A stretch of DNA of 39,321 nt, taken from the NCBI GenBank assembly GCA_032718475.1, contig JAUCBJ010006265.1, positions 1 through 39,321 on the forward strand, read 5' to 3'. This document shows positions 9,056 to 34,036 of the stretch, piece after piece; within the stretch, counting starts at the first letter, position 1, and every line of letters starts with the position of its first letter. The translations under genes were made by a program, and so were the position numbers. This stretch comes from Nemertoderma westbladi (lineage: Eukaryota > Animalia > Xenacoelomorpha). Below the pieces are notes generated by a model that saw only the letters and a program-made list of their open reading frames with translations, had not been told where the DNA came from and did no database searches.

Positions 9056-9305
9056 TGTTAAACTGGCGCGACCCCTAATACTGACAGCAGAACTGTTGAA
9101 CAGACAAATACCCGTATACCTCTCTGCCAACCTAATGAGTTCTCGCCTAACCAATAAGACATAAAGACTGCTCTACTGTTAAGTAAAGGGGATCAGGAGC
9201 GTGTTATTACTAAAATGTAAGGCTGCTAAATACAAAACCGCTACTTACCGTTGGATGGCGCTAATCTGCCGTCCGCTAATATATTTTACTAAATTTACAC
9301 GACTC
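9056..9305 (-). repeat. Truncated 3' LTR of the outer element (terminal 250 bp only)
   Basis: Matches 27750-27999 with 3 substitutions seen by eye, then diverges abruptly after ACACGACTC. Confidence 0.95.
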
Positions 9306-9604
9306 GAGTGCCGGGGCCGCAGCCGCTGGAGCAGCTATTGCGAAACAATTAACCGTGGACGGTAATAATGGTTAAAACGGGAGTAACATTTAGAAAATTA
9401 TATTTAGTATCGAGTAAACCGTTAGCTACTGATTTAAAACCTCAAGATATACCTAGAGTAAATACTACAAAAAGAAAACCCTTCAAAACATTGATTACAT
9501 AATTAAAAAATTATGGAGACATAATTAAAAAATTTCAGTTGTTCTTACGGTGATGCCCTTTATAAGAGATTTGAATATACATATTACTTGCGGTTGTCGA
9601 AAAG

Positions 9605-9952
9605 ATGCCACGCAAGATGAAACCGATTTTAAGCCGAACCTTAGACAAAAAACTGTTAAGAATTTATTTAGATCCTTCATCCCCTGCGGGATTTGCAAGT
9701 GTTGCAAAATTAGCAAAAGCTGCAAACATCAAACCAGCATAAGCCCAGAAATGGTTGAGCAGGCAAAAGACATACACCCTTCACGCTCCACGTAGACATC
9801 ATTATCCAACATCTAAAATATTTACGGGAGGCTTAAAAGATATATATATATGATAGATCTGGTGGATATGCAGCAATATAAATCGCAAAATAATAATTAT
9901 AACTATATATTAACATGTATTGATGCCTTTAGCAGGCTTGCTTTTGCCTATG
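9605..9952 (+). pseudogene. Polinton retroviral-like integrase, N-terminal part
   Basis: Manual translation: MPRKMKP...IYLDPSSPAGF...KWLSRQKTYTLHAPRR...IDLVDMQQYKSQNNNYNYILTCIDAFSRLAFAY. Stop at 9740-9742 and a (TA)n slip at ~9841-9851. The frame continues at 16100 after removing the insertion. Confidence 0.88.
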
Positions 9953-10347
9953 TGTGACGGGATCCAAGAGGGATCCCGGTTTACCCGTTGTTAGTTCACG
10001 CGTCCCCGCCGTGTATAAGGAGTGAATGAGTTTGTGCTGTTTGTCGTATATAATATTTGGATATGCAGATATAGATATAGATATAGATATGAGATAATAT
10101 TGTCGTATACAGAAGGCGGGATACGGTAACTAAAGTCCCGGTCCTTCCCTAGCTAACTATGTAACCTAATCTAGCACCGGTATTGCACTGAGATAACTGA
10201 ATTGGTATGATTACTGCCAAGTGGCTATATTGCACGGTTGGCCTTGTTACTCTACCTAATCGATGCCTTTCCCCCCTCTGATTGGTTGATACCCTTGTTG
10301 GCGCCCTTTGGAGTGTTCCCGTTCACTTCACCTATTCTCTCTGGGTT
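9953..10347 (-). repeat. Truncated 3' LTR of the inner element
   Basis: Matches 15548-15943 with ~3 substitutions and 1 indel, then runs directly into protease-region coding sequence. Confidence 0.95.
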
Positions 10348-13300: not shown

Positions 13301-15480
13301 CCACTCCCTGCCTACCAACTACGTGGCCTACCAGGCCCTCGCTGGGTCTATCCAACCCAGCCACTCCCTGCCTACCAACTACGTGGCCTACCAGGCCCTC
13401 GCCGGGTCTACCTAACCCAGCCACTCCCTGCCTACCAACTACGTGGCCTACCAGGGCCCCATCTGTCTGGCCATACACGCCCGACGTGTTTACATTAATA
13501 GCACCCGTATTGGAAACGGAATTAATTTGTTCGTTCGAAATAAAATCATTTGAATTATCTTGCGCGACTACACTATCTGAATTATTTTGTAAATTCGGGC
13601 TCGCTGAATTATTTAAGTTATTTGGATTATTTTGTGTTATTGCATTACTTAAATTATTTTGTAAGTTCGAATTTGGGTTATTACTTTGATTATTTGGATT
13701 ATTTTGCGTAGCTACATTAATATCAGAATTATTTTCTACATTAATATTAGGAATGTTCTGATTTAAATTTAAATTACTACCACTAGGTAAAGTATTTCCT
13801 GCAATAAAGGTTTGATTAGAATTATCCCATACGGTACTATTAATATTAACCACGTCTACTGTACCATTATCATTATTACCCCCCCCCCCCCCCCGCCCGT
13901 ACGGTCACACCAGTTTTGGGTCTGTCGTGCGGTCCCTGTAAGTGGGGTATTAATAAATGTATCCACGGCCCCTGGCTCCTCTAAAATACTCGAGCCAGTC
14001 TCGCTCTCAGACGCCCCCGCCCGCACCATTTGCAACTCATGCGCGCGTCTAATCCTATGTTCCGAAAGCTCACTTTGGCGTCTCTTTAATTCCTTTTGCT
14101 CTCGCTCAGCTTCTGCCATTCTCCTCTCACACTCCCGCGCGTCCTGGCCAGCCAACTCTGCTACTCTCCTAGCGCTCTCCCTTCGTCTCGCTTCACGCTC
14201 TCTGCGTTCACTTTCCTCCCTCGCCTCACGTTTCTCGCGTTCCGCCTCACGTTCCTTTCGTTCACTTTCCTCCCTCGCCTCACGTTTCTCGCGTTCCGCC
14301 TCACGTTCCTTTCGTTCACTTTCCCACTTCGCCTCACGCTCCTTGCGTTCACTTTTCTCTCTCGCCACACGCTCCTCTTGTTCCTTCAACTCTATTTCAT
14401 CATACTCCCTAAGGCTTCTCAAAGCCCTTTCGGCCTTCTCTCCGGTTTCTCTAATCAATGCCGCTTCCCTCTCTAGCCGCATTCTCCCCTCCTCTAGCCG
14501 TTTATCCATTTCCCTCTGACCTTGCTCTATCAGCTCGAGACGGTACGCGGCACCTGCCTCTCTCACCAGTCTTTCTTTCGCGGAGGATGTAGCAGACTTA
14601 TCGGTCACGACGGACTCCCTTCGCCTCCCCGATCTACTAACTTTCCCCCGCTTCCCGGAACTTCCTCCGACCGATGAGGCCGAATCCTCGGGGTTAACCT
14701 CGGATTCGCCCCCTTCTGGTCCCCTCCAACCCACTAATTTTACTCCCCGGGCATCGACCAAGTATGGCCCTATGTACACTGACGCTACGCTAGGTTCCAT
14801 ACTCCCACATTCCCATAGTTCGAACAGTTCACTGGCAACCCCTTTCGCTCTCTCCTCGGCTAGTTCTCTCTGCCCAAAACGCATTAGGTAATTAAAGTGT
14901 CTATCCGACTCACCTAGTCGTTTCCTCAGTCTCACCTCGTCTATCTTCGCCCCTTCCTTCTTAGCGTCCTTTAGTAGTCTCTGGGTCGCGTTGTAGGCCC
15001 GTCGAAGTCGATCAGAAACCCCGACGTCCTCGTCGCCGATCTCTCTTCCGTCTCTCCGGGTCCGACGTCGTACCGGCGGCCCCACCGTCGCCGTTTCGGT
15101 GGGCCGTTCGTCGCCCTCGGCCTGTAGCTGGCCGGCGACATCGGTACCGATATCTCCTTCGTCTCTCTGCGTCCGGGGCCGCACCGTCGGCCCCACCGTC
15201 GCCGTTTCGGTGGCCGCTCGTCGCCCTCGGCCTGTGGCTGGCCGGCGACACCGGTGCGTCGACCCCCGTCCCGTGTCGACTCGTCTCCTTCTCCCTCGAG
15301 CTCGTTCTCTCTATCCTCCGACTCGACCTCAGGTTCCAGGTCCCCCTCGTCCTGAACTGCCGGATGACCCGTTACCGATGGGTCCGGCGTTGTGGGCCTG
15401 TATCGCCTGGTTGCGGCCTCGCGGATCGTTAGCTCTTCGTCCGGGGTCCGCGTCGGTGTTATCTCTCCCGACTGGCTCAT
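10348..15480 (-). pseudogene. BEL/Pao gag-aspartic protease polyprotein, broken by frameshifts and a stop; RT/RNase H/IN deleted
   Basis: ELPPVEPFKFDG...YLQVYTGGPA...LDREYG (DUF1759-like), LITDPVYS, knuckles CQLHANAFHQTMNC and frameshifted CFRC...GQRAREC, protease LVDSGA. Several frameshifts fall in poly-C tracts. Confidence 0.9.
13163..13458. repeat. 60-bp coding tandem repeat (20-aa unit GLVGHVVGRQGVAGLNRPSE), 4 full plus 2 partial copies
   Basis: ACGTGGCCTACCAGGCCCTCG... units at 13201, 13261, 13321, 13381. Confidence 0.95.
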
Positions 15481-15547
15481 CTTTCTTCTGCAGATTTGGT
15501 GGCTGGTGGTTACTGAGTTTATCTAGGGCGGCAGCTATTTTAGTTAC

Positions 15548-16094
15548 TGTGACGGGATCCAAGAGGGATCCCGGTTTACCCGTTGTTAGTTCACGCGTCC
15601 CCGCCGTGTATAAGGAGTGAATGAGTTTGTGCTGTTTGTCGTATATAATATTTGGATATGCAGATATAGATATAGATATAGATATGAGATAATATTGTCG
15701 TATACGGAAGGCGGGATACGGTAACTAAAGTCCCGGTCCTTCCCTAGCTAAACTATGTAACCTAATCTAGCACCGGTATTGCACTGAGATAACTGAATTG
15801 GTATGATTACTGCCAAGTGGCTATATTGCACGGTTGGCCTTGTTACTCTACCTAATCGATGCCTTTCCCCCCTCTGATTGGTTGATACCCTTGTTGGCGC
15901 CCTTTGGAGTGTTCCTGTTCACTCCACCTATTCTCTCTGGGTTAGGGGTTTGGCCCCTGACCCTCATTGTGTGCTTCTCCTTCCCATTCTTATTGGGATG
16001 CCACGAGTTGGTTAATTACCCAATCTTGTGGCTCCCAATATTGCTTATCGGCTTATAACTTTATGGGGTGTTAGCGGGATTGAATAAGCTAACA
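15548..16094 (-). repeat. Full 5' LTR of the inner element (547 bp)
   Basis: Minus strand TGTTAGC...GTCACA, bounded by the TSD, with the gag start 68 bp downstream. Confidence 0.93.
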
Positions 16095-16101
16095 CTATGG
16101 T

Positions 16102-16842
16102 ATGAAAACAAAAAAGGGTATTGAAATTATTAGTATATTGCAAAAAATATTCCAGAAAGGAAAACAAAACAGAATCGCGACTGATCAAGGTTCTGAGTTT
16201 CTAAATAAATCTGTAAGGAAATATTTAGATACGTTAGGTATACAGTATTACGTAATGTACTCTGCAAATAAGGCGGCTATTGTCGAGAGATTCAATAGAA
16301 CATTAAAAACAAAGATGTTCAAAATTTTCACACAACGGGGAAATAATGTTTGGATAAAAATTTTACCTAAGCTTATCTCGGCTTATAATAGGTCATATCA
16401 TAGGACAATACAAATGACTCCCATTGAAGTTAATAAATTTAATGAAACTGAATTAATGAATAGATTATATGGGAAATATAGACAGATTAATCACAAGAAA
16501 ATAAAATTTAAAGTTGGAGATACAGTACGATTATCTATCGCTCGTACTGCTTTTGCTAAAGGCTATCGAGAACAATGGACACGTGAATTATTTATTATTC
16601 ATCGTGTCAGGTTGGATAGAGTACCAGCGGTAATGTTCGATATTAAGGACAGTGCTGGAGCTATAATAAATGGCTCATTTTATTCATACGAACTCCAAAA
16701 GGTCCACCCGAATAGTAATATTTATCTTCCAATTGACAAAAATATTGGCAAACTTAAAGAACGTGTACGCAATGGGAAGAAAGAATATTTAGTCCGATTC
16801 ATCGGATCCAAGAAACAGTCGTGGGTACAGCATATTCAATAA
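16102..16842 (+). pseudogene. Polinton integrase, C-terminal part with chromodomain-like tail
   Basis: IATDQGSEF, KAAIVERFNRTLK, YNRSYHRTIQMTP, FKVGDTVR, FAKGY..QWT.E.F, GSFY..ELQKV, KKEYLVRFIG...SWV. Confidence 0.92.
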
Positions 16843-17086
16843 GCTTAGGTTTATACTGTATATTAATTCATTTTGGTCACATATGTCCGTAATTAATCAA
16901 TATTAACTCGAATGATATTACTATATCTATAGTTCATCCGCTTTAAATAAAGCCAGTAAAATATTGATCCCTCGCATATACTGTAGAAGATGCGACAATG
17001 AACGTGGTCACAGATGTCTATAATTTAACATTATACTGTATGTACAAAGGAGTCAAGTAGAGAGAGCTTAAATAATAATAATAATA

Positions 17087-17953
17087 ATGGCCACAGATAC
17101 ATATATCACTCTACTTTCAGATAGCTCATTAAACACTTATCCCAATAATAATCCTAGCGAGTTTACTGTTGATTTAGCCGAAGAATTATATATTGGTCCA
17201 AACGCTAAAATTGGGCTTGCCGAGCTACAATACCAAGCAACATACAGTAATATTACGCTGCAAACTCAAATCTCGCTGGCAATCGGGGTAGATGCAAAAG
17301 ATGCCAAATTATATAGTTTATTTCCTGGTATGCATAACTCTATTCAAGTCATTATTGATGATATAAATAAACTGTTTACTTCTGAAGCGAAATATAGAGA
17401 TTTCGAATTCATTTTTAATACAAATAATTCTAGAATTAAATTTAAATTTCCTAAAAAGTTGAAAAAAATACAATTAAGTATACGTGGTGATTTAATTCAA
17501 ATTCTAGGCTTAAAACCGTTATTGAATCAGAATCATCCAGGTATTCCGAATTGGGATATATACAGTACCACTACAGTAGATGAATTAAGCAATATAGAAC
17601 AACCGATATTAATTTTAAATTATAGCGGACCAAAAATTTCGGAAATTGGCATTTTAGATTTTCCAGCTCCCACGAATATAACTCGTAATAAAGATACAAT
17701 CTTCATATACACAGATATTATTAAGAGCTCATTTGTTGGCGACGCTTTAGCTCCGCTCTTAAGAACCTGTCCATTAACACAATTAAATCGAAAATATATT
17801 AATCACGAATACGAGAGCATTTGCTATTACCCATTGTTGAATAAAAAACTAAAAACAATATTAATTACTTTACGTGACGGGCAAGGCGAATTAATTAATT
17901 TTAGCGGAGGTCGCACTGTTATAACACTTAAGTTAATACGCGGTGGAGGGTGA
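17087..17953 (+). CDS. Polinton minor capsid (penton-like) protein, copy 1
   Basis: YITLLSDSS..YPNNNPSEF...IGLAELQY at the N-terminus; IFIYTDII..SFVGD..APLLR...YYPL...I.I.LRD..G..INF..G..VITL at the C-terminus. These match the Maverick penton pattern; it lies between integrase and MCP. Confidence 0.78.
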   Translation: MATDTYITLLSDSSLNTYPNNNPSEFTVDLAEELYIGPNAKIGLAELQYQATYSNITLQTQISLAIGVDAKDAKLYSLFPGMHNSIQVIIDDINKLFTSEAKYRDFEFIFNTNNSRIKFKFPKKLKKIQLSIRGDLIQILGLKPLLNQNHPGIPNWDIYSTTTVDELSNIEQPILILNYSGPKISEIGILDFPAPTNITRNKDTIFIYTDIIKSSFVGDALAPLLRTCPLTQLNRKYINHEYESICYYPLLNKKLKTILITLRDGQGELINFSGGRTVITLKLIRGGG

Positions 17954-18803
17954 TGGATGAATTCTACGTTAGACTACCGAGTAACTCCTGTCCAATTGAT
18001 TTTCCCCGCAATAGCGCTAGTAATTATCAGATCAATTTTCATGGTGCCTTACCTATAAATCCAAACGAAAACTGGGTGGTAGGTATAAAAAGTATATTTT
18101 ACTTAGCCACGTTGCCGTCAATGTATAACAATGTAGAGAATGTTATTTTATTAAAAAAAGGGAAAAAAAATTTTGAGGATACACTTCCATCCGGCTTGTT
18201 CTACAGTATCAATGACATTATAGATTATTTTAACACTGGGGCGTTGAAAGATAAATTACAAATAGTTGAAAATACTCAGCAAAATAGGTTGCAATTTATT
18301 TTAGGGAAAGCGGTGCGAGAGTTATTTATAGGTCAACAATTAGCCTATTATTTTGGAATTACTGAAAATAATCTCGGTGCGAATTTAAATCCAAATTTTA
18401 AAATTATTTTGAAGACGAAAAATAATAACATAAAGGGTTATTTAATAAAGGTTATCGGAAATGAAGAAAAAACTTACCAGATGGTATTTTTATGCCCTCA
18501 ACCACCCAATTCTATTCCAGAACCTAAATCGAACATGTACGAGACTACTAATACAATTGAAAATCAATATATTAATGACTTTGGTTTAGCTTTACTTCGT
18601 CGCGTGGCGATACCTGATGACGTGAAATATGGTAGCATAATAAAAATAAAGAATTTGCCAAGGATACAATTCATTATATCCCTGTAAAAAAATCATATAA
18701 GATAACATACATTCATATTGAAATAACAGACAAAGAAGGAAAAGATTTGAATTTTGAATACGGGACAACATCTATTACATTACACTTTAAACAAATAAAT
18801 TAA
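17950..18803 (+). pseudogene. Polinton minor capsid (penton-like) protein, copy 2, one frameshift near 18645
   Basis: FYVRLPSNS...FPRNSASNY...WVVGIKSIFY; LALLRRV; the shifted frame gives HYIPV...IHIEITDKEGKDLNFEYGTTSITLHFKQIN* (stop 18801-18803). Confidence 0.78.
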
Positions 18804-18804
18804 A

Positions 18805-19367
18805 ATGGATTCTGATTTATTTCAAAGATACAGTAAACCTCAAGTGGTGCAGACTCTAATCTTGCTGTTTTTAAAGGTGGAAGAAGTACCAGAGGGTCGA
18901 CGCAAGTTCCTGTTTTTCGAGGTGGTTCATATATTGACCCTTACGGTCAACAAATTGGTGCATTTGGTCCAAACTTAAAACAACGTCGTTTTCAATGTTA
19001 TCCTAGAGGTATGCGGGCAAATCAACACGGGGAAGGTATATTTACAGACGCTTTATCGACATTGAAAAAATTTGGTAAGCCATTAGCTAAAAAAGTTTTA
19101 CAAAAAGCTTTACCATTTACCACAAAATTTATGAGACAACACGTAATACCAAAAGGTAAGCGGGTCTTACATCAGCAGGCTAATACGGTTATTAATAAAG
19201 CATTAAATAAAATGAAACCGTCAACAAGGTCAGTTGTAGAAAAAGTTTATAGAGATTTAAAGCGACCTGCTAGACCAATGTCTATGAACATACATCATCG
19301 TCGTAGTAATAAAAATAGAAAAATAAAAAAAGGCAAACTGAAACACTGCGAAAAAAGTATTTTTTAA
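18805..19367 (+). pseudogene. Small basic Polinton core/maturation protein (pVII-like), frameshift near 18843
   Basis: Joined reading: MDSDLFQRYSKPQ/GG...AVFKGG...PVFRGG...QHGEGIF..LKKFGKPLAKK...K/R-rich...SIF. Q-x-G-x-G motif and position just before MCP are typical of Mavericks. Confidence 0.65.
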
Positions 19368-19369
19368 TA

Positions 19370-20629
19370 ATGTCAATTATTAAGGAATTAGATTTATTTT
19401 CTACACAGCCAATACAGACTGAATTTAAAGCAAAGCATTATGAAACAATTTACCCAGTATCTAATCTCAGAAGTGAGTCTAGGGAAGTCACGTTCCTTGT
19501 ACCGAGATCCAATGAATTCTATACGAAACTGCAAGATGCGTTATTAATTACAAAATGTACTGTACGGTGGGATAGACGACTTGAAAACTCTCATATATAT
19601 ATGTTGAATTACCCTTCTGGGACTATGTGGAGTGATATTAAAATAGACTTTAATGAGAAGCAGGTTGAAAATAGCAATAACCATTATTTCTACAAGTCGT
19701 ACTTATCCAATTTATTATTTACAACTTAGGAGGATAAAAATGGGCTACTGGGTGCGGGCGGCTTTCGTCAACCTTTAACCGAACATGGAAATGAAATTAA
19801 TCCTGACGCGCATCCTATTGGCGATGCCTTTAGTAAACAAATGCAATTTGTAAGTGGATTGACGATTGATTTTGATACTGAAAGTAAAATAATACAACCC
19901 GGGTATGATTTAAGAATGCATTTTAGAAAAGTATCAAATTCGTTTATTTTTAAAATCACTCCAAACGCAAACGCAGTGACAAATCTTCGATTAGAATTAG
20001 ATGAAGTAAAGATCCTAATCCCTAGAATGGAGGTTAATCCGGTAATAGAAAGCAGTCACCTAAAAGGTTTAGAGAGTTACGATATTGAATATCAATTCCA
20101 AAAAAAGGAGGTTACAACATTTACTATTCCCGCTCAAACCACAAATTACACACAAACAAACATATTTGATGGTAAAAAACCCAAATTAGTTATTATCGGC
20201 TTCATAACAAATAACGCTTATTCTGGAGAATTAATTAGTAATCCCTTGAAATTTGAACATTTTAACCTTAGACGCGCGGAACTGATTGTAGACGGTCTTC
20301 CAGTAGGTGGTGTAATATACGAGCCTAATTTTACAGATGGAACATATATTTTTGAGTATACTCAATTAATGAAGAACATTAATACATATATTAACGGTTA
20401 TGGGTGTAATAATATAGACCATGAAACCTACTTAGGTAATTGCCCCCTCCTATCCTGGGACCTAAACGCCGACGGCTATGTTAGAGATCCGCAACCGTCG
20501 ATATATACTAACGGCCAATTAAAATTAAGATTTGCCGAACCGTTGGTTGAGACCATAAATGTAATCGTTTTTAATATTTATGATCAATCATTAAGTTTAA
20601 ATAGCTGGAAAGAAATACATATCGATTAA
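19370..20629 (+). pseudogene. Polinton major capsid protein (double jelly-roll), one in-frame TAG at 19727-19729
   Basis: ORFs 19370-19729 and 19841-20629 share a frame. Motifs ELDLFS.QPIQT, NIFDGKKPKLVIIGFITNNAYSG...NPLKFEHFNL, L.LRFAEPL.ETINVIV. Confidence 0.88.
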
Positions 20630-20631
20630 GT

Positions 20632-21084
20632 ATGTTATCTACAGAGGACCTTGATATGTTTCCAGTGGGTGGTCACTATTTGGGAGCGTTTCCAGCTAAG
20701 AAATTACCTAAATTAGATAATAATAATAAGCGAAGAGATTATGGGTTAATAGTAAATACCGATAAAGAGCATCTGCCCGGGATTCATTGGATCGCAATAT
20801 ATATACGAGATAATGAGGTTGAATTTGATTCGTTTGGGCCAAAATATCCAAACAGATGCATCGAAAAATGGCTTGAGAAAAATTCAGCGAGGTGGCGTAC
20901 TACTCGCAAACAATTTCAAGACCCCAGGAGGACCACATGCGGCCTATACTGTCTCTATTACTTGGTAAATCGAATTGACACAAACTATCCAATGAGAGCG
21001 TTTACAAATAATGTAGAAATAAATGAAATAATATTATATAAATGGCTTGTTAATTATTATAAAATAAACCAACAAGCGTTGTAA
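20632..21084 (+). CDS. Adenain-like (C5-type) cysteine maturation protease
   Basis: IVNTD...PGIHWIAIY (His), FDSFG (Asp), QFQ....TTCGLYCLYYL (Gln/Cys); directly follows MCP. Confidence 0.93.
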   Translation: MLSTEDLDMFPVGGHYLGAFPAKKLPKLDNNNKRRDYGLIVNTDKEHLPGIHWIAIYIRDNEVEFDSFGPKYPNRCIEKWLEKNSARWRTTRKQFQDPRRTTCGLYCLYYLVNRIDTNYPMRAFTNNVEINEIILYKWLVNYYKINQQAL

Positions 21085-21115
21085 TTAATCATTTAGCTTT
21101 TGTTTATCAGATAAA

Positions 21116-21691
21116 ATGGATAATATTATTTTTGTTGATTTTCAATACTATAAGATAGACAATAAAGAGTATCCGGTAGTATTTAAAGAATTTGCTATAT
21201 TCGATTCTAATTACACCAAAACTAATGTAAAGATGTTTTTATTTAAAGGTCCTCCTAATATTAAGTTATCAGCTTTAGATATAGCTCACGTAAACAATTT
21301 ACGAGACATGACTTCGCATTTACCTTGGGATTACGGCGACATTTCGCAAGATGACTTTAAAAAATACATGAAGAGACATTTAAAATATAAAAAAAATAGT
21401 CATGTATTTGGGTTGATGAAGCAGGCAATATTAGTTTCCCAACTTGATGTTCTCGCTCCAAATTCGATGGAGAAATTGGGAATATATCGACTATATTACA
21501 ACTATTTAACCCCCTGTCGCTTCCACGATCAATTAACTACAGTAGAAGATAAATGTAGTTTCCACTTAAACACAAGGGATAACTGTCTGCGGTACTGCTC
21601 AGCGAAAAGGGTTGGAGGGTATGTAACGAAGCGTTCAACTGCGTCAGGTGATAAACAGAAAGAAATAACTGCGGTGGAAGATGTACTGTAG
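21116..21691 (+). CDS. Polinton accessory protein, possibly degenerate DEDD/RNase H-like fold with a Cys/His tail
   Basis: IIFVDFQ...VFKEFAI...FLFKGP...HLPWDYGDI...CSFH...C-S resembles a recurrent Maverick ORF. Function is inference only. Confidence 0.55.
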   Translation: MDNIIFVDFQYYKIDNKEYPVVFKEFAIFDSNYTKTNVKMFLFKGPPNIKLSALDIAHVNNLRDMTSHLPWDYGDISQDDFKKYMKRHLKYKKNSHVFGLMKQAILVSQLDVLAPNSMEKLGIYRLYYNYLTPCRFHDQLTTVEDKCSFHLNTRDNCLRYCSAKRVGGYVTKRSTASGDKQKEITAVEDVL

Positions 21692-22056
21692 GTTTACTGT
21701 AAGCTTGTAATGTGATGGGATATAATATAATTTTATTTTGGTGATGATCTTGATGTTAATATAAAAATATAATAAAATATAATTTTTTTACAACAAGTTC
21801 TCTAAAAAAGAGTCAATTGCACTAGGTTAACCATACACATTTAACAATATGACGTAGACATAACATGTACAGTAAGTATTCTCGATATCATTCTAATATA
21901 GATATACTGGTATTGCGAAACATCCTATACATCGCAAACTAATAACACATACAGTAGTTGACTAGTAATATTAGTCAGAAATGCAACATAATCTGTATAG
22001 GGTGTAATGATTACCTGTTGGTACCGGTACTGATAAATTCAATAATTTATTATAGG

Positions 22057-22915
22057 CCTATCCACAACTGTCATCCGCTTTATCAGTACCGGTAGTGTTT
22101 TACTCTTCCAACACTGTAGTCGCTGTCTACTGGTATCAGTACAGCAGTAATCTGATGCAAGGAGGGGTCTCACATACAGGGATTAGATCACCTACCCAAA
22201 CAATACAGTACTGCTGTACTGTCGCTGTTGTTGTAACAGCATAGTCAGATAGAGCATACTGATTTCCTTTGATTAGCATTGTACCGCAGTACCAGTACCG
22301 CAGTATTAATGTAACAGTACCCGCAGTAACAAACTAAACCAATGTATACAATATTGTGAGCCAGTTACAATCAGATGTGTACGCAGTCAGCCACGCTGCG
22401 GGGATGCAGTCAACCTCACAGCTAGCCTCGCAGCTCCTATCCACAACTGTCATCCACTTTATCAGTACAGCAGGAATCTGATGTAATAGCATTTGTTTTT
22501 TTTCACCTATAAGGATACTGCTGTCTACCCGAACCTTGATTAGCATACTGCTGTCATAACCTAGAAGGTACGCGTGGCTCTCATATATAGGGATTAGATC
22601 CCCTACCCAAACAATACAGTACTGCAGTACTGTCGTTGTTGTTGTTGTAACAGTATAGTCAGATACAGCATGTTGATTTCCTTTTATTAGCATTGTACCG
22701 CAGTACCGGTACCGCAGTATTAATGTAACAGTACCCGCAGTAACAAACTAAACCATTGTATACAATATCGTGAGCCAGTTACAATCAGATGTGCGCGCGG
22801 TCAGCCTCGCAGCCACCCTCGCGAGCAGCATCGCTGCCAGCCTCGCAGCCAGCCAGCCTCGCAGCCAGCCTTGTGGCACGCAGTTAGCCTCACAGCCAGC
22901 CAGTCAGCCAGCAGC
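22057..22915. repeat. Imperfect ~380-410 bp tandem duplication followed by CAGCC-rich microrepeats
   Basis: CCTATCCACAACTGTCATCC at 22057 and 22436; a ~225-bp block at 22168-22392 recurs at 22579-22806. Confidence 0.88.
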
Positions 22916-23030
22916 TACTACCGGCTAGGCATGCAGTCACCCCGTGAGAGTCATACTTATTCAAACGAGGTTAGTTTTCCCTAACTACCGATAGATCGAA
23001 TGAAAAATAATATTGTTTAATTTTCACCTT

Positions 23031-23585
23031 CTAATCACCAATATATTCTACACCTAAAGTCACAACACCAAACATTAATAAATAATCAACAAGTTTACTA
23101 AATATAGGGTAATAAATATGAAATTTGCTAGGTGAACACATTAAAGTACATTTACCGGTATGAAAGCAGCAAATGACTACGGTATTATTTATTCTTATTT
23201 TGCAATTATTAAAAATTTCAGGTTCATATATAACTTGAAGTTGCACATTATCAAAGACAACATAAAACCCGGTATTGTTTATCAATAACCTATAGACTAC
23301 AGACTTAATACTAAAAATATAAGTACATAAATTAACAGATTTTAAAATCAAATTAATACTAGTTTTATCAAATATATGCTTTTTTACTTTATGGAAATTA
23401 TACTTACTGCCTAATAATATAATACGACCATTTTTAAATATTAATAATGTGGCACCAAATATCTTATATATAAACTGATTTGGTTTGAGTATGTGTTTAC
23501 CAGATAATTGATTTTTTAATTCTTTAAAATTAATCGCTGACACTTGCTGGCAACTTACATTCTTATTAACTATCTGATAGTTCAT
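23031..23585 (-). CDS. Divergent TATA-binding protein (TBP)-like protein
   Basis: Two saddle half-repeats: ATLLIFKNGRIILLGSK (cf. TBP TALIFSSGKMVCTGAK) and YEPEIF...VICCFHTGKCTL (cf. YEPELF...LLIFVSGKVVL). 184 aa fits the TBP core; intronless and overlaps the PolB stop. Confidence 0.8.
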   Translation of the reverse strand: MNYQIVNKNVSCQQVSAINFKELKNQLSGKHILKPNQFIYKIFGATLLIFKNGRIILLGSKYNFHKVKKHIFDKTSINLILKSVNLCTYIFSIKSVVYRLLINNTGFYVVFDNVQLQVIYEPEIFNNCKIRINNTVVICCFHTGKCTLMCSPSKFHIYYPIFSKLVDYLLMFGVVTLGVEYIGD

Positions 23586-24135
23586 TGTTTGGTTCCCGAT
23601 AAATAGGTATATTGTTTTTCTTTATCGGTTTTTCGAGCTTTGTTTGATAGTGACCCCAAGGAAGTGAATGATTTTTATTAACCCAATAAAGTTTATCGTC
23701 AAATGCGCTGAGAGCAAACTTATCTCGTGCTACAGTGTACACTTTGTGTAATTGGCTCTGAAATTGATGCGTTTCCTTGGAAATTTCTTGGTTATCCTTA
23801 TATGCTCTTAAATAATCTTCGTGGCAAATATTTTTATCCACGACAGCTCTTGTTATTCCTTTCGCCCGTCGTATATTCGTTTCATTGAATTCCAAAATTG
23901 AATATAATTTTGGTCTTAAAAATACCGCTTGTTTAATTTCACGTGAGGCTAGTTCATCTTTACAGTAATAGAGTCTGGATTTATTTTTATCGCTGTAGAG
24001 AGGGTTATCCTTGGGGTAATTGGATGTATCTAAAATATTATTTTTAATTAAGGCTTTTAAGAAATTACTCTGCGATGTATTATAGTAACAACCTATTAAA
24101 GAGTCCGTATCTGATGCTACAATATCAATTCGGCA
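23566..24135 (-). pseudogene. Protein-primed family B DNA polymerase, C-terminal ~190 aa, fused in frame to BEL Gag
   Basis: SDTDSL, LDTSNYP.DNPLYS..N, KDE, LRPKLYS, AKGI, LSAFDDK, SLPWGHY are Maverick PolB C-terminal motifs at the end of ORF 23566-25710. Confidence 0.93.
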
Positions 24136-26547
24136 GGGTTCTGCAGGGTTGTTAAGTCTGGTCCTATCCCGGGGATTAAAACTTACCTGCTCCGCGTCCG
24201 TCCTTCTTTCCTTATAGTTTCGGGACTTCTGACGTCTCATGTCTTCCTCTTCATCGCTCGACTCGGTGTCAGTACTTAGCGCTCGCGATGGTTTGCGCGC
24301 CGAGGCCCTGACCCAAGCATCTTGTATAAACTTCTCAGCTGAGTTTTCGAAATTGGGATTATGGATATTTGGGACAGGCATCCTTACCTGAGGTCTATGT
24401 GGTATAGTCTCCTCCGATATGCGTACTCGTTGACTAGGCTGGACTTTATCTAACTCAGGCCTGCTAGGATTTGAATTACTTCTTACCTGGGTTGCTTCCT
24501 TTAACTGTAGGTTACTAAGCATGTCCGTTATAGGTTGGATGTGTGGCGATATAGTTTGCGCTAAACTGGCACTTAACTCATCCCTCGTAATAAATTCCTG
24601 GCTAGGGTTCTGTTGTATAGTCGGCTCTATCTGAGTAATCCGCTGTCTCTCATATGATCCCTCTTCCGGTTTAACCCGGAAGTTCTCCGTCGAACTGGGT
24701 CGGCGCTCCGTCCGCGTATTCCAAACCCGCGGGTTCGGTTCGCCCAATACTCGTCTCGTCAGAGTTTCTCTAAACTCTCCGTTGTCTCGTTCGGTGTACA
24801 GTGGTGCGGTGTTCTGATGACGTGGATTCTGCGCGATAGGTGAAGCACTAATACCAACTGGCGTGCGATATGTAGAGAACGGTTTAGCAATCCGTGTACT
24901 CGTAATAGCTGGACCGGGTATAGGAATTCTGGTCGTCGTCGACTCGCGTATAGTCGGAGTTCTCGCTTCCTGTTCGGCCTTCTGCAGTGCGAACAGTTCT
25001 CGCAACTCGGTACCTACACTCGCCCCACATTCTTCGATCATTCGCATCCCCTTCTCGGCGATTTCATTCGCCTTTCTAGTCCGTTCCTCGCACTCTAGGG
25101 TTAATCTCGCACTTTCCAACTGCGCCAGTTTACGTTCTTCTTCTTCCCTCACTCGTCTCGCTGCGCTCTCTTCTTCCACATGCGCCTTTTCTTCATACAA
25201 CGCTTGTCGCTCTTTCTCGATCTCGAGTTCGCGTTCCTTACGTTCGCGTTCAAGTTGGAATTCGTGTTTCTTCACTTCCCGTTCGCGTTCAAGTTGGAGT
25301 TCGCGTTCTTTCTGTTCGCGTTCTTTCTGTTCGCGTTCAAGTTGGAGTTCGCGTTCAAGTTGGAGTTTGCGTTCCTTCTGTTCGCGTTCCGCTTGCTCAT
25401 GCTTACCTTTCTCTTCCAACTCCCGCAACTTTGCGTCTAACTTACGTCTTCGCTCCCTTTCTCGTTCGGCTTCCTTCCGTGCTTCCGATGCACGCAAAAC
25501 TTCCGCCTGTTGTTCGTCCAGTCGGCGTCTTCTCTCCTCTTCCGAGTTGTGCGAAACAAGGGATCTAGCATATATAACTTTCCCTCGCGCGTGACTAACC
25601 TGGGAATTGCCACTGTCTCTGGATGCGTCGTCGGGTGGAGTCAACGTCCTCTGTTGAATGTTCTCCGTCGTCGGTAGCACCTGGCCTGGTACCACCACTC
25701 CATTCTGCATCAGTCAGCTAGTAACTTCCCTCTGATAACGGCGCTCTTCTTTATCTTGGATCTCTTCCCGCTCCTCTAAGTCTCTTAAATCTGCGTCACT
25801 CACCTGAGTCGCCTGCGCTTGTGATGCCCATAGCAACCAGTTTTCCGTCCTAACTCGTCGAAATCGCTCCGATAACTCGCGGTGCTCTGACAAGGCTGCT
25901 AAAACCCTATCATAAACCCTCGTCTCCACGTCGCTCGACTGAGACTCTACTGCCTTCTTTGCTAGGACTGCAAGCTCCTCCGTCTGTTTGAATAACGCTG
26001 AGTTGTATCCTCTTCTAATCTCTATTAACCCTTCCCTGTCGATGTTCGCCGAGTCGGCTAACATCTTCCTTACCTTGTCCGCCGTCCGAGTTATATGTCC
26101 GGCATGCGCGCGAAGTTTCTTCTTTATCGCAATATCAAGTTCTCTCTCACTTACCTGACTCACACTTGGTGGACTTGAAGGATTATTTCGGGAACTACGG
26201 GTACTCCTTACAGCCGCTGGGACCACGGCACTTACCATACCCACAGGTCTGGAAACCGGGCTCCGGGCTCTCGCTTCTGCTACACTACCCTCCCTATCAC
26301 TCACCTCTGTCCGGGCTGCTGTGCGGTCCTTCCTTACAGTAGTGGTAGGGGATCCTAATACTATTACCTCACCTTGTTCTTCCTCACTGGTTACTGTCTC
26401 ATCCTCCTGTTCACTTACGTCAGCGTCGCTCGCTGCATCGTCATAGTCGGCATTGTCGTCAACAGTAATATTGACACTATCGTCAGTCGGCGGTCCAGCC
26501 GCCGTCTCATAGCTGTCCTCTAGTGCCTCCTTGTCTGAGACACTCAT
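24136..26547 (-). pseudogene. Gag N-terminal region of the outer BEL element, one in-frame TGA at 25714-25716, truncated at the PolB junction
   Basis: ORFs 25714-26547 and 23566-25710 share a frame. KKLRAHAGHITR motif, long E/R coiled coil, located downstream of the 5' LTR. Confidence 0.75.
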
Positions 26548-27749
26548 AGTCTAAATAATGTTTGCCTTCCGGCAAAATATCTCGCAAAAGTTCGAGATAT
26601 ATATATAATTTAATCGAAATACGATTAAATTATTTGACAAATAATCAGTTGGTCCAAAATGTCAAAATAAATTCGCAATGCAATATTGTGAATTTAATGG
26701 GGTATATAGTTATAGCAAATACTAGCACAATATTTAAACAAAAATATTATTATATAGCTATTATAGCAATTAAATACCGGTATGACACAAAATAGTTTCT
26801 GAATCTAATACAAAATATTCAGAATGAATTTGCCACCCAAATAATTCCAATTTTGCATATATAGCTCTAATCAACGTAATTTTAATTTCAAATATTATAT
26901 GTATCCACTAGCGCGTGGCTACATCTTCGGGTTGCGACTCTCTCTAACTCTCTCTCTAACTTGAGCGATTCAAAAAACCATGGCCGGCTAAACCTAAATA
27001 TCCTAACTAATAAATTGAGTTCAGCTTTGCAGTTAAACAACCGATAATTTTTTACTGCTTCCACAAACACAATGGTGCCAACAGAGCAACTAACCTTGTT
27101 TGCTGTGAGATTCCACGTCCGCGTCCAAAGATTCAGGCTCTTCGCTGATTGCAAACCGAACCCGCAGACCCACACGAACCCCAAACTCAGAAGTTCTGTC
27201 TTGCCATGTATCTCCAGATGGTATAAAATAACTAAGCGGTTACCTAACATACCGGTACAAAACTCTAGAATTTTACAAATAATTTTGACCGAAACTGAAT
27301 TCTTGCAAACCTAGCTAAAATTAAAAAAAACTTACTAATTACAATTCGCCCTAAGGCCTAAGGAACTGCTGTATTCGCAATTAGTAAAAACGCACTACCG
27401 TACATCCACTGTATGCAGTACAGTAAGTAAAACAGTACACCAACCTAACAGCCTAATGATACTGTGTGTGGTACGGCAAAACAAATGTCCCTTCTACCGT
27501 ACGCAGTAACAGCAATCAGCCTAATGTACTACTGTACTATTGTACGCGACCAGTGAATACAGTAAGCTAAACTAACAGCCTAATAATACACTCGATGTTC
27601 TACCGTACGCAGTACAGTGCCTAATACAGTAGACAATATCACGTGCTCTAACTTATTACTTAATTACTGCAGTAACAGTGATCCTACCTATCAGCCTAAG
27701 AATACACTCTTGACTGCTGCAAGCAACAGCCAATAAAAGCATACCTTAC

Positions 27750-29978
27750 TGTTAAACTGCCGCGACCCCTAATACTGACAGCAGAACTGTTGAACAGACA
27801 AATACCCGTATACCTCTCTGCCAACCTAATGAGTTCTCGCCTAACCAATAAGACACAAAGACTGCTCTACTGTTAAGTAAAGGGGATCAGGAGCGTGTTA
27901 TTACTAAAATGTAAGGCTGCTAAATACAAAACCGCTACTTACCGTTGGATGGTGCTAATCTGCCGTCCGCTAATATATTTTACTAAATTTACACGACTCT
28001 TGCAAAATCGCTTGTTCCTTTCTCTACCGATCGCTCGATAGAGAGCTAACTGTTCGAATCTATGAGCCACGCGGGAATAACCAAAATAATAAACCCGAGT
28101 CGGCTCCCTAAGCTTACTTAAGACGAGTGCGAGGGGCTTTGCACTCAGAGTATATTCTTACGCCTAATTTTACCACTATTGAAGTACGATAATGCCTACG
28201 TCTTTTCTAATCGCGAATACTGGGGATTCCCTAACGGAATGTGTGAATGCGAGAATATTTAAATAATCAAAAAATTGGTACAGTACACTGTCTTTCGTGG
28301 GTAGTACCGCTCTGGGTCTAAACTTGCCTGCAGCTGGCTTTAGGCCAGCAATCTACTAGTGTCTTGCGTACTGACTACTGCGATCTAGCTTATTGCCCGC
28401 TAGTGCAAATAACCGCTCAGCGTGAATAGTTTACGGTACTCTAAATTATTACCTTAGCTACTCTCCGCTATGCTGCGTACTAATTCTTAATTTTACGAAT
28501 CAATTACAGTCACAAATATGTAACAGCGCACTAATTACTAAGAGTTCCAGAATGCGTAATTCTAATTTATTACACAACAGGTTTCGCTAGTAATAGCCTA
28601 AAATGCCGTATTACTTTGACCTAATCAGTAATTATTTGTAGTAACTAAGAAATAGAAATCAATCAAAGAGAAAAGGAGCGCCTACCTAAGCATTCGTAAT
28701 CGTAGGCACACTTCAGTAACACACCAATCAGCGTCAGCAATCACAGATCACAATAGTACAACTTGCAATTATACAATCCGCAATCATATAATTCGCAACA
28801 TAATAATTCGCAATTGACTAATTCGCAATCTACTGTAAGGTATGCAGGCCCCTCCCGGGTACGTCTAGGCTTCCTAACTAACCCAATTCCTGCCCCCCTA
28901 ATACTAAATAGAGACAAAATCTGGATCATCAGCCCCCTAGTTACCGTACCAGCGAGTGGTCTCTACCTACAGTTCAAATTGCCCGACCACAACGTTGACC
29001 CCCGCCAGCGTTGCCCGCCTTTGAATCCTCCGCACTCCCTTCGTTGCTAACCCACCGATGTGCCCACCGCCTACTGGCAGCTTAGCCCTCCATTTATTGA
29101 ATAGCTACCGTAGCGGCGCATGCAAATCACAAGTCTGACAGTCTCAGAAATCCCGTAGGATTATTGCGTCGAAATGAATTACATAGAACCATTAACGAAA
29201 GAGGTAGAAATCATAGTTCCGGTTGTAATTAGCAGTAATCAATAGGATTGATTGAGAAATACAGTTAAGAATAATAACACTAATGAATCATTCCAAGAAA
29301 ATTAATCAAAAGGTAGAAATGCAGAAAATACGCACAAATTGTACTCCTAAACATTATACAAATAATATTGAGATGAGGTTGGCGTTATAGAGGAGTAGGA
29401 TTGAGTACAGCTCTACCGGCAAACCGCCAATTTATAGGTGATCTGAGAAGGGTGATGCAATAAGGGTGATGCAATCGCTCTCCTATTGGCTCTCCAATCC
29501 GTGCTAGCATTAGACCAACTTGGAAACAGTTAGTCCAATTAGAAAGCCGGATTGTGAACCTCAGGGCTTCCAAACCGCGAATTATTACCATATATGGTAA
29601 TGGATCATGTCCCTGGCTGCGGAATGGTTAGGATTGCGTCCCTAGATGCTAGCCCTATCGAGGCTAATAACAGCAAGCACATATCCGGGGTCCAACTGAA
29701 CTTGCTACCCTGGAACTATCTACTTATATCCTAATACAAAATTACATAGGTAGGGCTACATACTATACAAAATGGATGAATTCAAAAATATATGGGCATT
29801 TTAATTTCCTTATCTAAATGTCACCGCGCTATCATGTCTTATCTATCTAAAATATTATACTGCATAACGGACTAATATTGCGTACAGTATAACGGACTAA
29901 TATATTATACTGCATAATGAACCAATATATTATACTGTATAATGGCTAATAATGTGTACAGCGCCATATACCGTAACA
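27750..29978 (-). repeat. Full 5' LTR of the outer element (2229 bp)
   Basis: Minus strand TGTTACGG...TTTAACA, bounded by the TSD; colinear homology to 32156-34036. Confidence 0.92.
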
Positions 29979-32155
29979 GTAACACTTACATTTATATAGA
30001 AGTAATCAGCTATTCATTGCTTCGCCTTTCCTCTGGAGATGGATGAATTTTGATTCCGTCGGAACACCCCCTTTTTGAGGCTCTAAGAGGGAAGAGATAA
30101 GTAGCCTATCCCCCTGTTAATATTGTTGTGTTCTAGAATATTTATTATAGTTTCATCGAATTGCCAAAGCGGCTGGAGCCGAAGTTAATATGTGATACAA
30201 TAATTCACCTCAAATTTCTCAGCTATTTCATGAATATAATGAGTATTAAAGCCATGTCTAAATCATTGGGGTTTTTCAGCAATAATTTATCAAAATCTCC
30301 TTTGATTTTTTTCAAAAACCACATAGATTTTCATATTTATAACTTCTAACCCATTCCACGAGATAGAGAATCTTAAATGAAAGTCATAAGAACAGGCAAC
30401 ACTTTCATTTATAGAAGTAATCAGCTGTTATTTGCTTCGTCTTTCCCCAGGAGATGGATGAAATTTGATTGCGTCGGAACACCCCCTTTTTGAGGCTCTC
30501 AGAGTGAAAATATAAGTAGCCTATTTCCCTGTTAATTTTGTTCTGTTGTAGAATATTTATTATAGTTTCATCGAATTGCCAAAGCGGCTGGAGCCGAAGT
30601 TAATATGTGATACAATAATTCACCTCAAATTTCTCAGCTATTTCATGAATATATTGAGTATTAAAGCCATGTCAAAATCCTTGGGGTTTTTCAGCAATAA
30701 TTTATCAAACTATCCTCTGATTTTTTTCAAAAACCACATCGATTTTCATATTTATAACTTCTAACCCACTCCATGAGATAGATAATCTTAAATGAAAATC
30801 AAAAGAACAGGTAACACTTTCATTTATAGATGTAATCAGCTGTTATTTGCTTCGTCTTTCCCCAGGAGATGGATGAAATTTGATTGCGTCGGAACACCCC
30901 CTTTTTGAGGCTCTCAGAGTGAAGAGATAAGTAGCCTATCTCCCTGTTAATATTGTTGTGTTCTAGAATATTTATTATGGTTTCATCGAATTGCCAAAGC
31001 GGCTGGAGCCGAAGTTAATATGTGATACAATAATTCACCTCAAATTTCTCAGCTATTTCATGAATATAATGAGTATTAAAGCCATGTCAAAATCCTTGGG
31101 GTTTTTCAGCAATAATTTATCAAAATATCCTCTGATTTTTTTTCAAAAACCACATCGATTTTCATATTTATAACTTCTAACCCACTCCACGAGATAGAGA
31201 ATCTTAAACGAAAGTCATAAGAACAGGTAACACTTTTATTTATAGAAGTATTCAGCTGTTATTTGCTTCGTCTTTCCCCAGGAGATGGATGAATTTTGAT
31301 TGCGTCGGAACACCCCCTTTTTGGGGCTCTCAGAGTGGAGAGATAAGTAGCCTATCTCCCTGTTAATATTGTTGTGTTGTAGAATATTTATTATTGTTTC
31401 ATCGTATTGCCAAAGCGGCTGGAGCCAAAGTTAATATGTAATGCAATAATTCACCTCAAATATCTCAACTATTTCATGAATATAATGAGTATTAAATCCT
31501 TGTAAAAATCCTTGGTGTTTTTCAGCAATAATTTATTAAAATCTCCTCTGATTTTTTACAAAAAACGACATCGATTTTCATATTCATGACTTCTAACCCA
31601 CTCCAAGAGATAGACATTAGACAATCTTAAACGAAAGTCAAAAGAACAGGTAACACTTACATTTATAGAAGTAATCAGCTATTCTTTGCTTCGCCTTTCC
31701 CCAGGAGATGGATGAATTTTGATTGCGTCGGAACACCCGCTTTTTGACATTAGACAATCTTAAACGAAAGTCAAAAGAACAGGTAACACTTACATTTATA
31801 GAAGTAATCAGCTATTCTTTGCTTCGCCTTTCCCCAGGAGATGGATGAATTTTGATTGCGTCGGAACCCCGGCTTTTTGAGGCTCTAAGAGTGAAGAGAT
31901 AAGTAGCCTATTTCCCTGTTAATATTGTTCTGTTGTAGAATATTTATTATAGTTTCATCGTATTGCTAATGTGGCTGTAGTTAAAGTTGTTATGTAACAC
32001 AATAATTCACCTCAAATATCTAAGTTTTTTCATGAACATAATGAAGTATTAAAGCCATGTCAAAATAATTGGGGTTTTTAAGCAATAATTTATTAAAATT
32101 TCCTCTGATTTTTTTTCAAAAACCACATCGATTTTCATATTTATAACTTCTAACC
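29979..32155. repeat. Satellite array continued, ~5 monomers, with an internal 133-bp duplication (31613-31745/31746-31878)
   Basis: Same monomer as 6252-9055; resumes in register after the TSD. Confidence 0.97.
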
Positions 32156-34036
32156 TGTTAAACGAACTACCCCAGCCTAACCAATAAAGACACAAACTGC
32201 TCTATTTACTAGACGGGGCAATGAGGAGCGTATAATTACTAATAATAGGGTTTCAGATACGGAAAACCACTACTTACCGTTAGATGGCGCTAATCTGCCG
32301 TCCGCTAATATATTTCCTAAATTTCTACAGCTCCTACTAAATTCTCGTTCCTTTCTCTACCGATTACTCGATAGAGAGCTAACTGTTCGAATATATATGA
32401 GCCACGCGGGAATAACCAAAACAATAAACCCGAATCGGCTCCCTTAGCTGACTTAAAACGAGTGTGAGAGATTTGACACTCAGAGTGTATTTTATAGCCT
32501 AATATTACTGTAAAATTGTGCTTACAACTACGTCCTTTCTAATCGCATCTAATCGCAATACTGGGGTTCCCTAACGGAATGTGTGAATGTGAGAATATTT
32601 AAAATAATCGAAAATTGGTACGGTAATTATTTCGGGACTCAAACTTATCTGCGGCTGGCTTTAGGCCAGCAATTTACTGATGCGCGCTGCGTACTGTATA
32701 CTACGATGTGAATTTTGTCCGCTAATTCAAATAACCGCCCAGCGTGAATAGTGTACGGTACTCTAAATTATTACCTTAACTACCCTCCGCTATGCAGCGT
32801 ACAAATTCCTAATTTTACTAATTAATTTCAGTCACAAATATGTAACGGCGTACTAATTACTAAGTATTCCAGAGTGCGTAATTCTAAATTATTACGCAAC
32901 CGGCTACGTCTAGGCTTCCTAACTAACCCAATTCCTGTCCCCCTAATACTACAAAATGCTACAAAAACCTGGATCATCAGCCCCTAATTGCCGAACCGGC
33001 GTATCTGACCCACTCTATGCTGCAAACTTGCGCGCAATAGTAATCCCCCCAATGTCACTTGTCTTTGAATCCTCCGCACTCCCGTCGTCGCTAACCCCCC
33101 GATGCACCCGCCGCGCTTACCGGTACCCTAGCCCTCCATCATAATGAGTAGCTACCGTAGCGGCACATGCAAATCACAAAGTCTGACAGTCTGAGAAATC
33201 CCGTAGGATTATTGTCGAAAGGAATCACATAGAACCATTTACTAAGGGGTAGAAATCATAGTTCCAATTTGTAATTAACAGCGATCATTGAGATTGATTG
33301 AGAAACACAAACAAGAATCAAACAGAAATTGCAAATTAGCGAATCATTGCAAGAAAATCAAAAGGGCAGTAATTTACACAGAAAAAACTAAGCATCGAAT
33401 AATAGTTGAAGGTGAGCTGTGTGGGGTGTGTGTAGAGACAATGGAAGTACGCCAATTTATAGGTGATTTGAGAAGGGTGATGCAATCGATCTCTCATTGG
33501 CTCCCCAATCCGAGCTAACATTAGACCAACCTGGAAGCAGTTAGGCCAATAAGAGAGCCGGATTGTGAGCCTATTGCTCCCTGAAATCGCAAATTGCCAC
33601 CATATAAGGTAATTTTCCCGATGCTTAATTTGGCGGTACTAATAATATCATGCACAAATATAAATTTAGCGCAATTATAGAGAAATTAAAACCAGTAGCT
33701 AGCCTCATCAAGGCTAATAACGGCAAGCCCAGATCCAGGGTCCAACAAGGACTTGCTACCCTGGAACTATCTACTTATATCCTATTACAAAACTACATAG
33801 GTAGGGCTACATACTATACAAAATGGATGAGTTCAAAATATATGGGCGTTTCAGTTTCCTTATCTAAATATCATTGCGCATTATGCCTTATCTAAATAAT
33901 TATACTGCATCACGGACTAATATATGATACTATATAATGGACTAATATATTATAATGCATAATGGACTAACATTATTATACTGTATAACGGACTAATGTA
34001 TTACATAATGTAGGTACAGCGCCATATACCGTAACA
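32156..34036 (-). repeat. 3' LTR of the third element (1881 bp), diverged relative of the 27750-29978 LTR
   Basis: Same termini (TGTTACGGTATATGGCGC...TTTAACA) and colinear similarity. It lacks ~280 bp present at ~28580-28860. Confidence 0.92.

Follow-up and report, generated by a model that had tools for sequence, protein, structure and literature searches.

A diverged TBP-like gene beside the DNA polymerase remnant of a Polinton fragment in Nemertoderma westbladi

A gene encoding a 184-aa protein of the TATA-binding protein (TBP) fold class is carried on the minus strand (positions 23031 to 23585) of the 39,321-nucleotide stretch of Nemertoderma westbladi DNA analysed here (contig JAUCBJ010006265.1; hereafter the window). 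The gene is real, lies in a broken Polinton fragment directly behind a remnant of the element's DNA polymerase (PolB), and belongs to a multi-copy Polinton family in which it is under purifying selection. From the residues kept and replaced in the protein, we propose, with a probability of roughly 0.55, that it is an element-encoded TBP that would recruit host TFIIB and RNA polymerase II (Pol II) at variant TATA words of the element's own promoters. Polintons are not known to encode an RNA polymerase. A single element TBP together with a candidate promoter box makes it testable how Polintons control the timing and expression of their genes inside host nuclei.

The 184-aa frame is open throughout, which was true of none of 2,000 base shuffles. 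It had been annotated initially, from the letters alone, as carrying both TBP half-repeats, and this is borne out by a match to PF00352 in two stretches, with a score above the curated cut-off (35.8 versus 22.9 bits; E value, 7.1e−9). The best of three PDB sequence matches was an archaeal TBP (E value, 0.003). TBP clusters, the top ones mostly viral, accounted for 29 of 30 matches in the ESM Atlas, where the recognition value of the protein was 1984, below the tool's mark of 2300. A single-sequence structure model was uninformative (pLDDT, 37.7). A model guided by an 87-row TBP alignment (pLDDT, 82; pTM, 0.65) folded as a two-lobe saddle, with no first helix in lobe 2 (pLDDT of ∼70 there), and matched TBPs in both Foldseek (E value, 5e−9; TM of ∼0.6) and VIA-align (Z, 13.8; rmsd, 3.6; 163 residues aligned). 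TBP made up the top 38 VIA-align entries, and the first non-TBP entry followed at a Z of 8.1. As the guided model leans on the TBP alignment, this fold evidence is not independent of the profile evidence. The protein has a pI of 9.5. The gene is AT-rich, as first described, but it does not simply share the composition of the element, its GC content of 0.25 being lower than the 0.32 to 0.36 of the other Polinton genes.

Five public sequencing runs from four studies contain part of the stretch, and the best of these may be the window's own source. The 581-base TBP stretch was recovered in 340 contigs in run X1 (138 at ≥99% identity, 135 at 95 to 99%, 40 at 90 to 95%, and 27 at <90%) and in 110 contigs in run X3. 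Single contigs over the stretch reached a depth of up to ∼11,000, which is not a copy number; together, the contig and depth pattern suggests many diverged copies of the element. Variants within the gene were classed one site at a time, ignoring phase, in the best-supported 40 of 65 rows, a choice favoring a divergent subfamily. Of these 40 sites, 26 fell at codon position 3 (p = 4e−5); 22 changes were synonymous, 18 were nonsynonymous, and none created a stop, giving a pN/pS of 0.19. The sole indel among the rows listed was an in-frame one of 9 bases near the end of the gene.

One contig of the divergent subfamily differed from the window at 49 of 293 aligned bases (83% identity), with no gap. 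A divergent contig linked the PolB part (position 23621) to the TBP part (23533) via other letters. The two genes are thus adjacent in at least two subfamilies, and this adjacency, together with the low pN/pS and the lack of stops, upholds the assignment of the TBP gene to the Polinton family. The 20-bp overlap of the gene with the end of the upstream ORF (23566 to 23585) is present in the window copy, but the junction letters vary among copies, so the overlap may not be a constant of the family.

The Polinton fragment extends from ∼9306 to 24137 and consists of a plus-strand block that converges with the PolB remnant and TBP gene on the minus strand. Several of the gene assignments below were made against L052, a metagenome contig with a related element. 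The 5′ part of the integrase gene (9605 to 9952, plus strand; L052 integrase E value, 3.5e−7) contains a stop and frame changes and is interrupted by a minus-strand LTR retrotransposon (9953 to 15943) with a DUF1759 gag and an aspartyl protease, whose direct repeats (9953 to 10347 and 15548 to 15943) share 99% identity. The 3′ part (16093 to 16842, plus strand) matched the L052 integrase, an rve-plus-chromo protein, with an E value of 7e−28 and the rve family itself below cut-off (E value, 4e−4). Downstream on the same strand are two putative minor capsid genes (17087 to 18803), named from gene order and similar to the L052 post-integrase gene (E values, 2e−6 and 3e−4), the second with a frame change near 18640 to 18690; a putative basic core protein gene (18805 to 19367), named from its position and composition and frame-broken near its start; and a putative major capsid gene (19370 to 20629), which has an in-frame stop at 19727 to 19729 and an N-terminal part resembling its L052 counterpart (E value, 5.5e−6). 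The lesions noticed initially in neighboring genes were thus found in the integrase, minor capsid, core, and major capsid genes. No Pfam or PHROG match was identified for the capsid genes of the window, and the capsid and core names denote gene order and similarity to L052, with no profile match behind them. An amphipathic, antimicrobial-peptide-like stretch was seen in the putative core protein (19011 to 19100, plus strand; PF08023 E value of 0.01, below cut-off).

The plus-strand block continues with a maturation protease of the adenovirus type (20632 to 21084; PF00770, 23.8 bits; cut-off, 21.3) and a 191-aa ORF (21116 to 21691) of an unnamed eukaryote-associated family (Atlas value of 0.96 to unnamed clusters), for which there was a weak Maelstrom-like (DEDD nuclease fold) lead (Atlas value of 0.88 to PF13017) and no Pfam match. 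A non-coding gap with a direct repeat of ∼414 bases inside it (21692 to 23030) separates the convergent blocks. Within the window, no Walker A motif or match to the packaging ATPase of L059 (a Polinton contig with a related polymerase), no match to the N-terminal half of the L059 PolB, and no long (terminal) inverted repeat were found. The window copy is a broken fragment without ends, most of PolB, and the ATPase.

The 714-aa ORF upstream of the TBP gene, read at first as an intact PolB, proved to be a chimera of a retroelement-like 524 aa and a C-terminal PolB piece. The PolB piece (23566 to 24137, minus strand), the last ∼190 aa of a polymerase of the protein-primed type from the DTDS motif to the end, shares 36% identity over 163 aa with the L059 polymerase (E value, 3e−29) and has homologues P0001 to P0003. 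Only residues ∼525 to 714 of the ORF matched such polymerases; residues 1 to 524 gave no match at an E value of <1.5 with three PolB queries. The PolB remnant had no named match in the PDB or PHROGs, and the N-terminal part of the L059 polymerase matched PF03175 below cut-off. In frame with the remnant is an ORF from a different repeated element, GC-rich (0.51) and coiled-coil-like (24138 to 25710, minus strand), the boundary being marked by a GC step from ∼0.3 to ∼0.5 near 24100 and by contig breaks. Public-run contigs diverge from the window on both sides of 24136 to 24138, and none of the 32 contig pieces among the matches listed (32 of 5,653) bridged this junction, so the fusion may be peculiar to this locus or assembly. 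Neither a Pfam family nor another window ORF matched the 524-aa part, which we tentatively assign to an LTR retrotransposon as its probable gag region.

Searches for homologues of the window protein identified none among 40 candidates, none among 1.84 billion representatives, and no viral loci. IMG/VR scans with a capsid piece, a PolB piece, and an alignment of short TBPs yielded no relative, nor did a scan of the genome collection with the short-TBP alignment. A TBP-motif scan of IMG/VR returned seven loci, of which five encoded a TBP (four archaeal-virus-like and one giant-virus-like) and two were chance matches; none was Polinton-like. The archaeal-virus-like IMG/VR loci L002/L003, L004, and L006 carry their own TBP genes, and L012 has two that are convergent. 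The corresponding metagenome scan gave 51 loci, and the TBP-positive ones were mostly archaeal- or eukaryotic-looking; ORFs were examined in 5 of the 51. In three contigs from one metagenome (L052, L013, and L031), a gene for a 169-aa TBP immediately precedes a Polinton integrase gene, and the integrase-to-capsid gene order of L052 is that of the window. The coupling to PolB put forward initially therefore holds in at least two subfamilies but is not general, given the gene's place before the integrase in these three related contigs. Another locus, L022, encodes a 144-aa TBP (340 to 774) with no recognised neighbor, and L023 is unrelated. A group of TBP-like proteins of 144 to 147 aa (L022, P0041, P0084, and P0114) is without much of the first strand and helix H2 of lobe 1.

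A profile built from the window protein and four metagenome relatives retrieved 1,391 proteins from 2,629 candidates. The best 120 comprised 67 of the short type and 49 cellular TBPs (separated by rank and length) as well as 4 fragments, which were dropped; a Polinton context is known for only three of the short-type proteins. The window protein scored 31.2 bits on the cellular profile and 40.6 bits on the short-type profile, the latter score being mildly circular because the short set was gathered with a profile containing the query; 200 shuffles reached at most 7.5 bits. Two trees were built from 29 of the 73 rows, with no host TBP; among the 44 omitted rows was the long-branched 144-aa group. 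The protein fell with the short-type clade in both (support of 100/100 with LG+G4 and 99/100 with the mixture model) on a branch of length 3.0 to 5.0. A quick tree of all 73 rows placed it outside the main clade, alongside the 144-aa proteins with their long branches. The phylogeny thus points to the short TBPs and not to eukaryotic TBP, but a placement outside the short-TBP clade was not rejected by the AU test (p = 0.087).

The Polinton in L059 (16.6 kb) encodes an integrase and an A32 ATPase besides its related PolB, but no TBP-like frame better than an E value of 0.05 was detected in it, which argues that the TBP gene is accessory. L059 is a contig in an Anaerolineae MAG, contains a block of ∼4.7 kb twice, and has a LINE-like RT beside it; it is probably wrongly binned host DNA.

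TBP has four intercalating phenylalanines, two base-contacting asparagines, and one specificity proline, as described in the text of PMC12529657. Two glutamates of the C lobe form the TFIIB contacts; in the survey of PMC7221094 they are kept in ∼40% of viral TBPs, most of which have a viral TFIIB, and the first glutamate is kept in ∼40% of viral TBPs with a TFIIB of their own. The published positions were mapped by us onto the columns of an alignment of the window protein with 22 cellular and 59 short-type TBPs. Kept in the window protein are N7, F38, F50, G53, G59, F125, F141, G144, and K145, along with both glutamates of the YEPE motif (E121 and E123), whose columns hold glutamate in 54 and 59 of the 59 short relatives. 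The three or four DNA-intercalating phenylalanines counted initially come to four, F38 (NQF), F50 (LIF), F125 (EIF), and F141 (CCF), the register of F38 being less sure as it adjoins a 5-residue gap.

Other positions have been replaced. The threonine of lobe 1 and the second asparagine are gone, the latter being a feature of the short-type family (threonine in 56/59). The Pro-Gly after F125 has become Asn-Asn, and the Thr-Gly of lobe 2 is Met-Cys (M149/C150), the glycine being present in 59/59 short and 22/22 cellular TBPs. The five residues after F38 are missing, and helix H2 is ∼6 residues shorter. The full set of two base-contacting asparagines, proline after the third phenylalanine, and Thr-Gly in both lobes is therefore not found, and in view of the changes in lobe 2, Pro-Gly, the second asparagine, and H2, the protein should not be classed as a canonical TATA reader. 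Replacement by M149/C150 of a Thr-Gly whose glycine is otherwise invariant may have altered or abolished the binding to DNA. The set of phenylalanines predicts binding and bending in the minor groove, the replaced second asparagine, proline, and lobe-2 Thr-Gly suggest an altered DNA specificity, and the shorter H2 would allow a partial escape from host TBP regulators.

In the proposed mechanism, the TBP would be made by the element together with PolB and would bind element promoters through the minor groove of a variant TATA word. Its two glutamates would be offered to host TFIIB, whereupon Pol II could start at the integrase and virion genes, with the activity partly beyond the control of host TBP regulators. 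The redirection of host polymerase to element promoters, as suggested initially, is predicted here from the residues kept and from a weak match to a promoter word. Host TFIIB is the likely partner because the glutamates are kept and the surviving fragment has no TFIIB-like gene; no Pfam match to TFIIB was identified in 14 proteins of the window, whose fragment is without element ends, or in 5 proteins of L052. More speculatively, co-expression with PolB could make the TBP an early product that switches on the integrase and virion genes of the opposite strand.

A candidate for the variant word is TATAAGAG, which has five copies in the 3.9 kb of L052 (expected, 0.41; 0 of 200 shuffles). These copies are on the coding strand before the starts of integrase, minor capsid, core, or capsid genes and never before the TBP gene. 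The integrase genes of L013 and L031 are preceded by the word as well; its copies there overlap the TBP stop at homologous positions and cannot be counted as independent. The 39-kb window has a single exact copy, a candidate promoter box at 9561 to 9568 (plus strand), 44 bases before the likely integrase start at 9605; the chance of one exact copy in any of seven upstream stretches is ∼0.04. Six of the seven non-TBP genes of the window had no exact copy within 130 bases of their starts, their nearest forms having one to three mismatches (combined P = 0.058); the core start was placed 4 bases early in this comparison, with no effect on the outcome. A de novo motif search in eight upstream regions of the window, in which the integrase start was mis-set, found nothing above shuffles. 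The box is strong in L052 and weak in the window element. That the window TBP reads TATAAGAG or a drifted relative is speculative.

We discarded TATACTGTA, a second word with three copies ahead of the first minor capsid gene, as a candidate box of the element: six of its nine copies are located beyond the Polinton, and TACTGTA occurs 46 times across the window against 6.3 expected. The ∼7-fold enrichment of TACTGTA is seen inside and outside all elements and marks it as a host-wide word.

Retention of the TFIIB glutamates alongside the replacement of central lobe-2 DNA contacts, and the lack of a clear common box before most genes of the window element, would suit a decoy or repressor that holds host TFIIB (or Brf1/2) or AT-rich sites unproductively and so damps host or element transcription. 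This seems unlikely to us, as a pure protein sink would have no need of the four phenylalanines, all of which are kept, and the genes of L052 are preceded by a strong box. In addition, the contact between TBP and TFIIB normally forms on DNA.

A DNA-bending role outside transcription, in which the TBP fold would serve PolB (for example, through bending or opening of the termini in protein-primed replication or in integration), would fit the position directly behind PolB in two subfamilies, which differs from that in L052, L013, and L031, as well as the pI of 9.5 and a divergence far beyond that of the relatives. It is nevertheless an improbable reading: the relatives' genes lie away from PolB, L059 combines a related PolB with no detectable TBP, and the YEPE glutamates have been kept, whose known role in the text of PMC7221094 is the contact with TFIIB. 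In that same survey, nearly all TBP-bearing viruses also have a TFIIB-like gene, and such a partner could have been encoded in a part of the element missing from the window, from which the ATPase, the bulk of PolB, and the two ends are absent. We give little credence to an orthogonal pair of this kind, given that host-type glutamates are kept family-wide and no TFIIB Pfam match turned up in the 14 window or 5 L052 proteins. That the gene is a captured host TBP decaying without function in the element, as its very long branch, GC content of 0.25, and loss of otherwise invariant residues might suggest, is largely refuted by a pN/pS of 0.19 with no stops at 40 sites, the gapless 293-base alignment of the 83%-identical subfamily, and trees that group the protein with short TBPs and not with eukaryotic TBP.

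Extending the preferred reading, a TBP acting with host TFIIB and Pol II, to the whole family, animal Polintons would have an old and widespread one-gene switch consisting of a bare TBP core and a private TATA variant working with host TFIIB and Pol II to switch on integrase and virion genes; the window protein would be an extreme member, relocated behind PolB, whose lobe-2 DNA surface is rebuilt and whose specificity has shifted accordingly. We consider this extension possible but doubtful. If true, such a private-TATA switch would be the smallest viral device known for commandeering Pol II initiation. The preferred reading would itself add a third viral use of the TBP fold, besides the TFIIB-bypassing herpesvirus mimic and the TBP-TFIIB pairs of giant viruses. 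Natural TBP variants with changed DNA contacts also inform TBP specificity.

Viral TBPs are known, and the window protein is an unusually diverged member behind PolB. With cellular TBP (PF00352; PDB entries 1cdw, 1ytb, and 1mp9) it shares the two-lobe saddle, four phenylalanines, first asparagine, and YEPE glutamates; it differs in being only ∼17 to 20% identical, in its shorter H2, in the absence of an N-terminal extension, in being borne by a mobile element, and in the replacement of the second asparagine, the Pro-Gly after the third phenylalanine, and the lobe-2 Thr-Gly-Ala. The short TBPs of L052, L013, and L031 (∼165 to 175 aa when database relatives are included) have likewise lost the second asparagine and kept the glutamates. 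They form a clade with the window protein in both 29-row trees and share the integrase-to-capsid order and the word before the integrase. However, they are only 23 to 25% identical to it, retain the lobe-2 Thr-Gly and a full H2, and are encoded before the integrase, whereas the window's gene is on the opposite strand, behind PolB.

A precedent for a TBP-like gene in an element related to Polintons is the label 'TBP' given to MELD viruses with an adintovirus-like PolB in the Fig. 5 legend of Starrett et al. (2021, PMC8502044). That precedent is a legend label in the section on non-animal datasets, with no sequence analysis, family, word, or mechanism attached to it in the text there. TBP is not among the accessory genes of animal adintoviruses in section 3.2 of the same article, and 'TBP' and 'TATA' are absent from the text of its supplement. 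Text matches to TATA in two further articles had no bearing on the question: in PMC12220804 the match is an author name, and in PMC10675990 it concerns mirusvirus-related elements. In the literature covered, a scope that excluded most subscription journals, Repbase reports, figures, and bioRxiv supplements, we found neither a TBP family of animal Polintons nor a promoter box or mechanism for one.

ORF24 of KSHV has a viral TBP fold with four phenylalanines and works with host Pol II, using TATTWAA at late genes (PMC12529657). The fold with four phenylalanines is common to both proteins, and a variant TATA word is proposed for that of the window. Unlike it, ORF24 is described there as large and multi-domain, contacting Pol II directly, depending on five other viral factors, and having no TFIIB glutamates (PMC12529657). 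The window protein is a 184-aa bare core with both glutamates and is therefore not a mimic of the herpesvirus ORF24/UL87/BcRF1 type. The TBPs of large double-stranded DNA viruses are similarly divergent, with DNA-facing phenylalanines kept and an eroded regulator surface on the N lobe (PMC7221094; BFVD matches), but most are paired with a viral TFIIB and their glutamates vary, according to the text of PMC7221094.

The surroundings of the fragment are rich in repeats. A 265-base direct repeat (97% identity; 9041 to 9305 and 27735 to 27999) flanks the whole Polinton fragment together with the retroelement piece fused to it and is the start of a unit of ∼2.2 kb (27839 to 29978 and 32175 to 34036; 73 to 84% identity) that contains 25-base tandem arrays. 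If this unit is a long LTR, as it may be, the Polinton fragment would be nested within an LTR element. Satellite arrays with a period of ∼415 to 419 bases (6252 to 9055 and 29975 to 31880; 6.7 and 4.2 copies, respectively) bracket the nested elements. Farther along, downstream of the end of a DUF5641 integrase (37538 to 38023), two overlapping ORFs of 305 and 376 aa with no Pfam match (34687 to 36659, minus strand) are possibly extra ORFs of an LTR retrotransposon.
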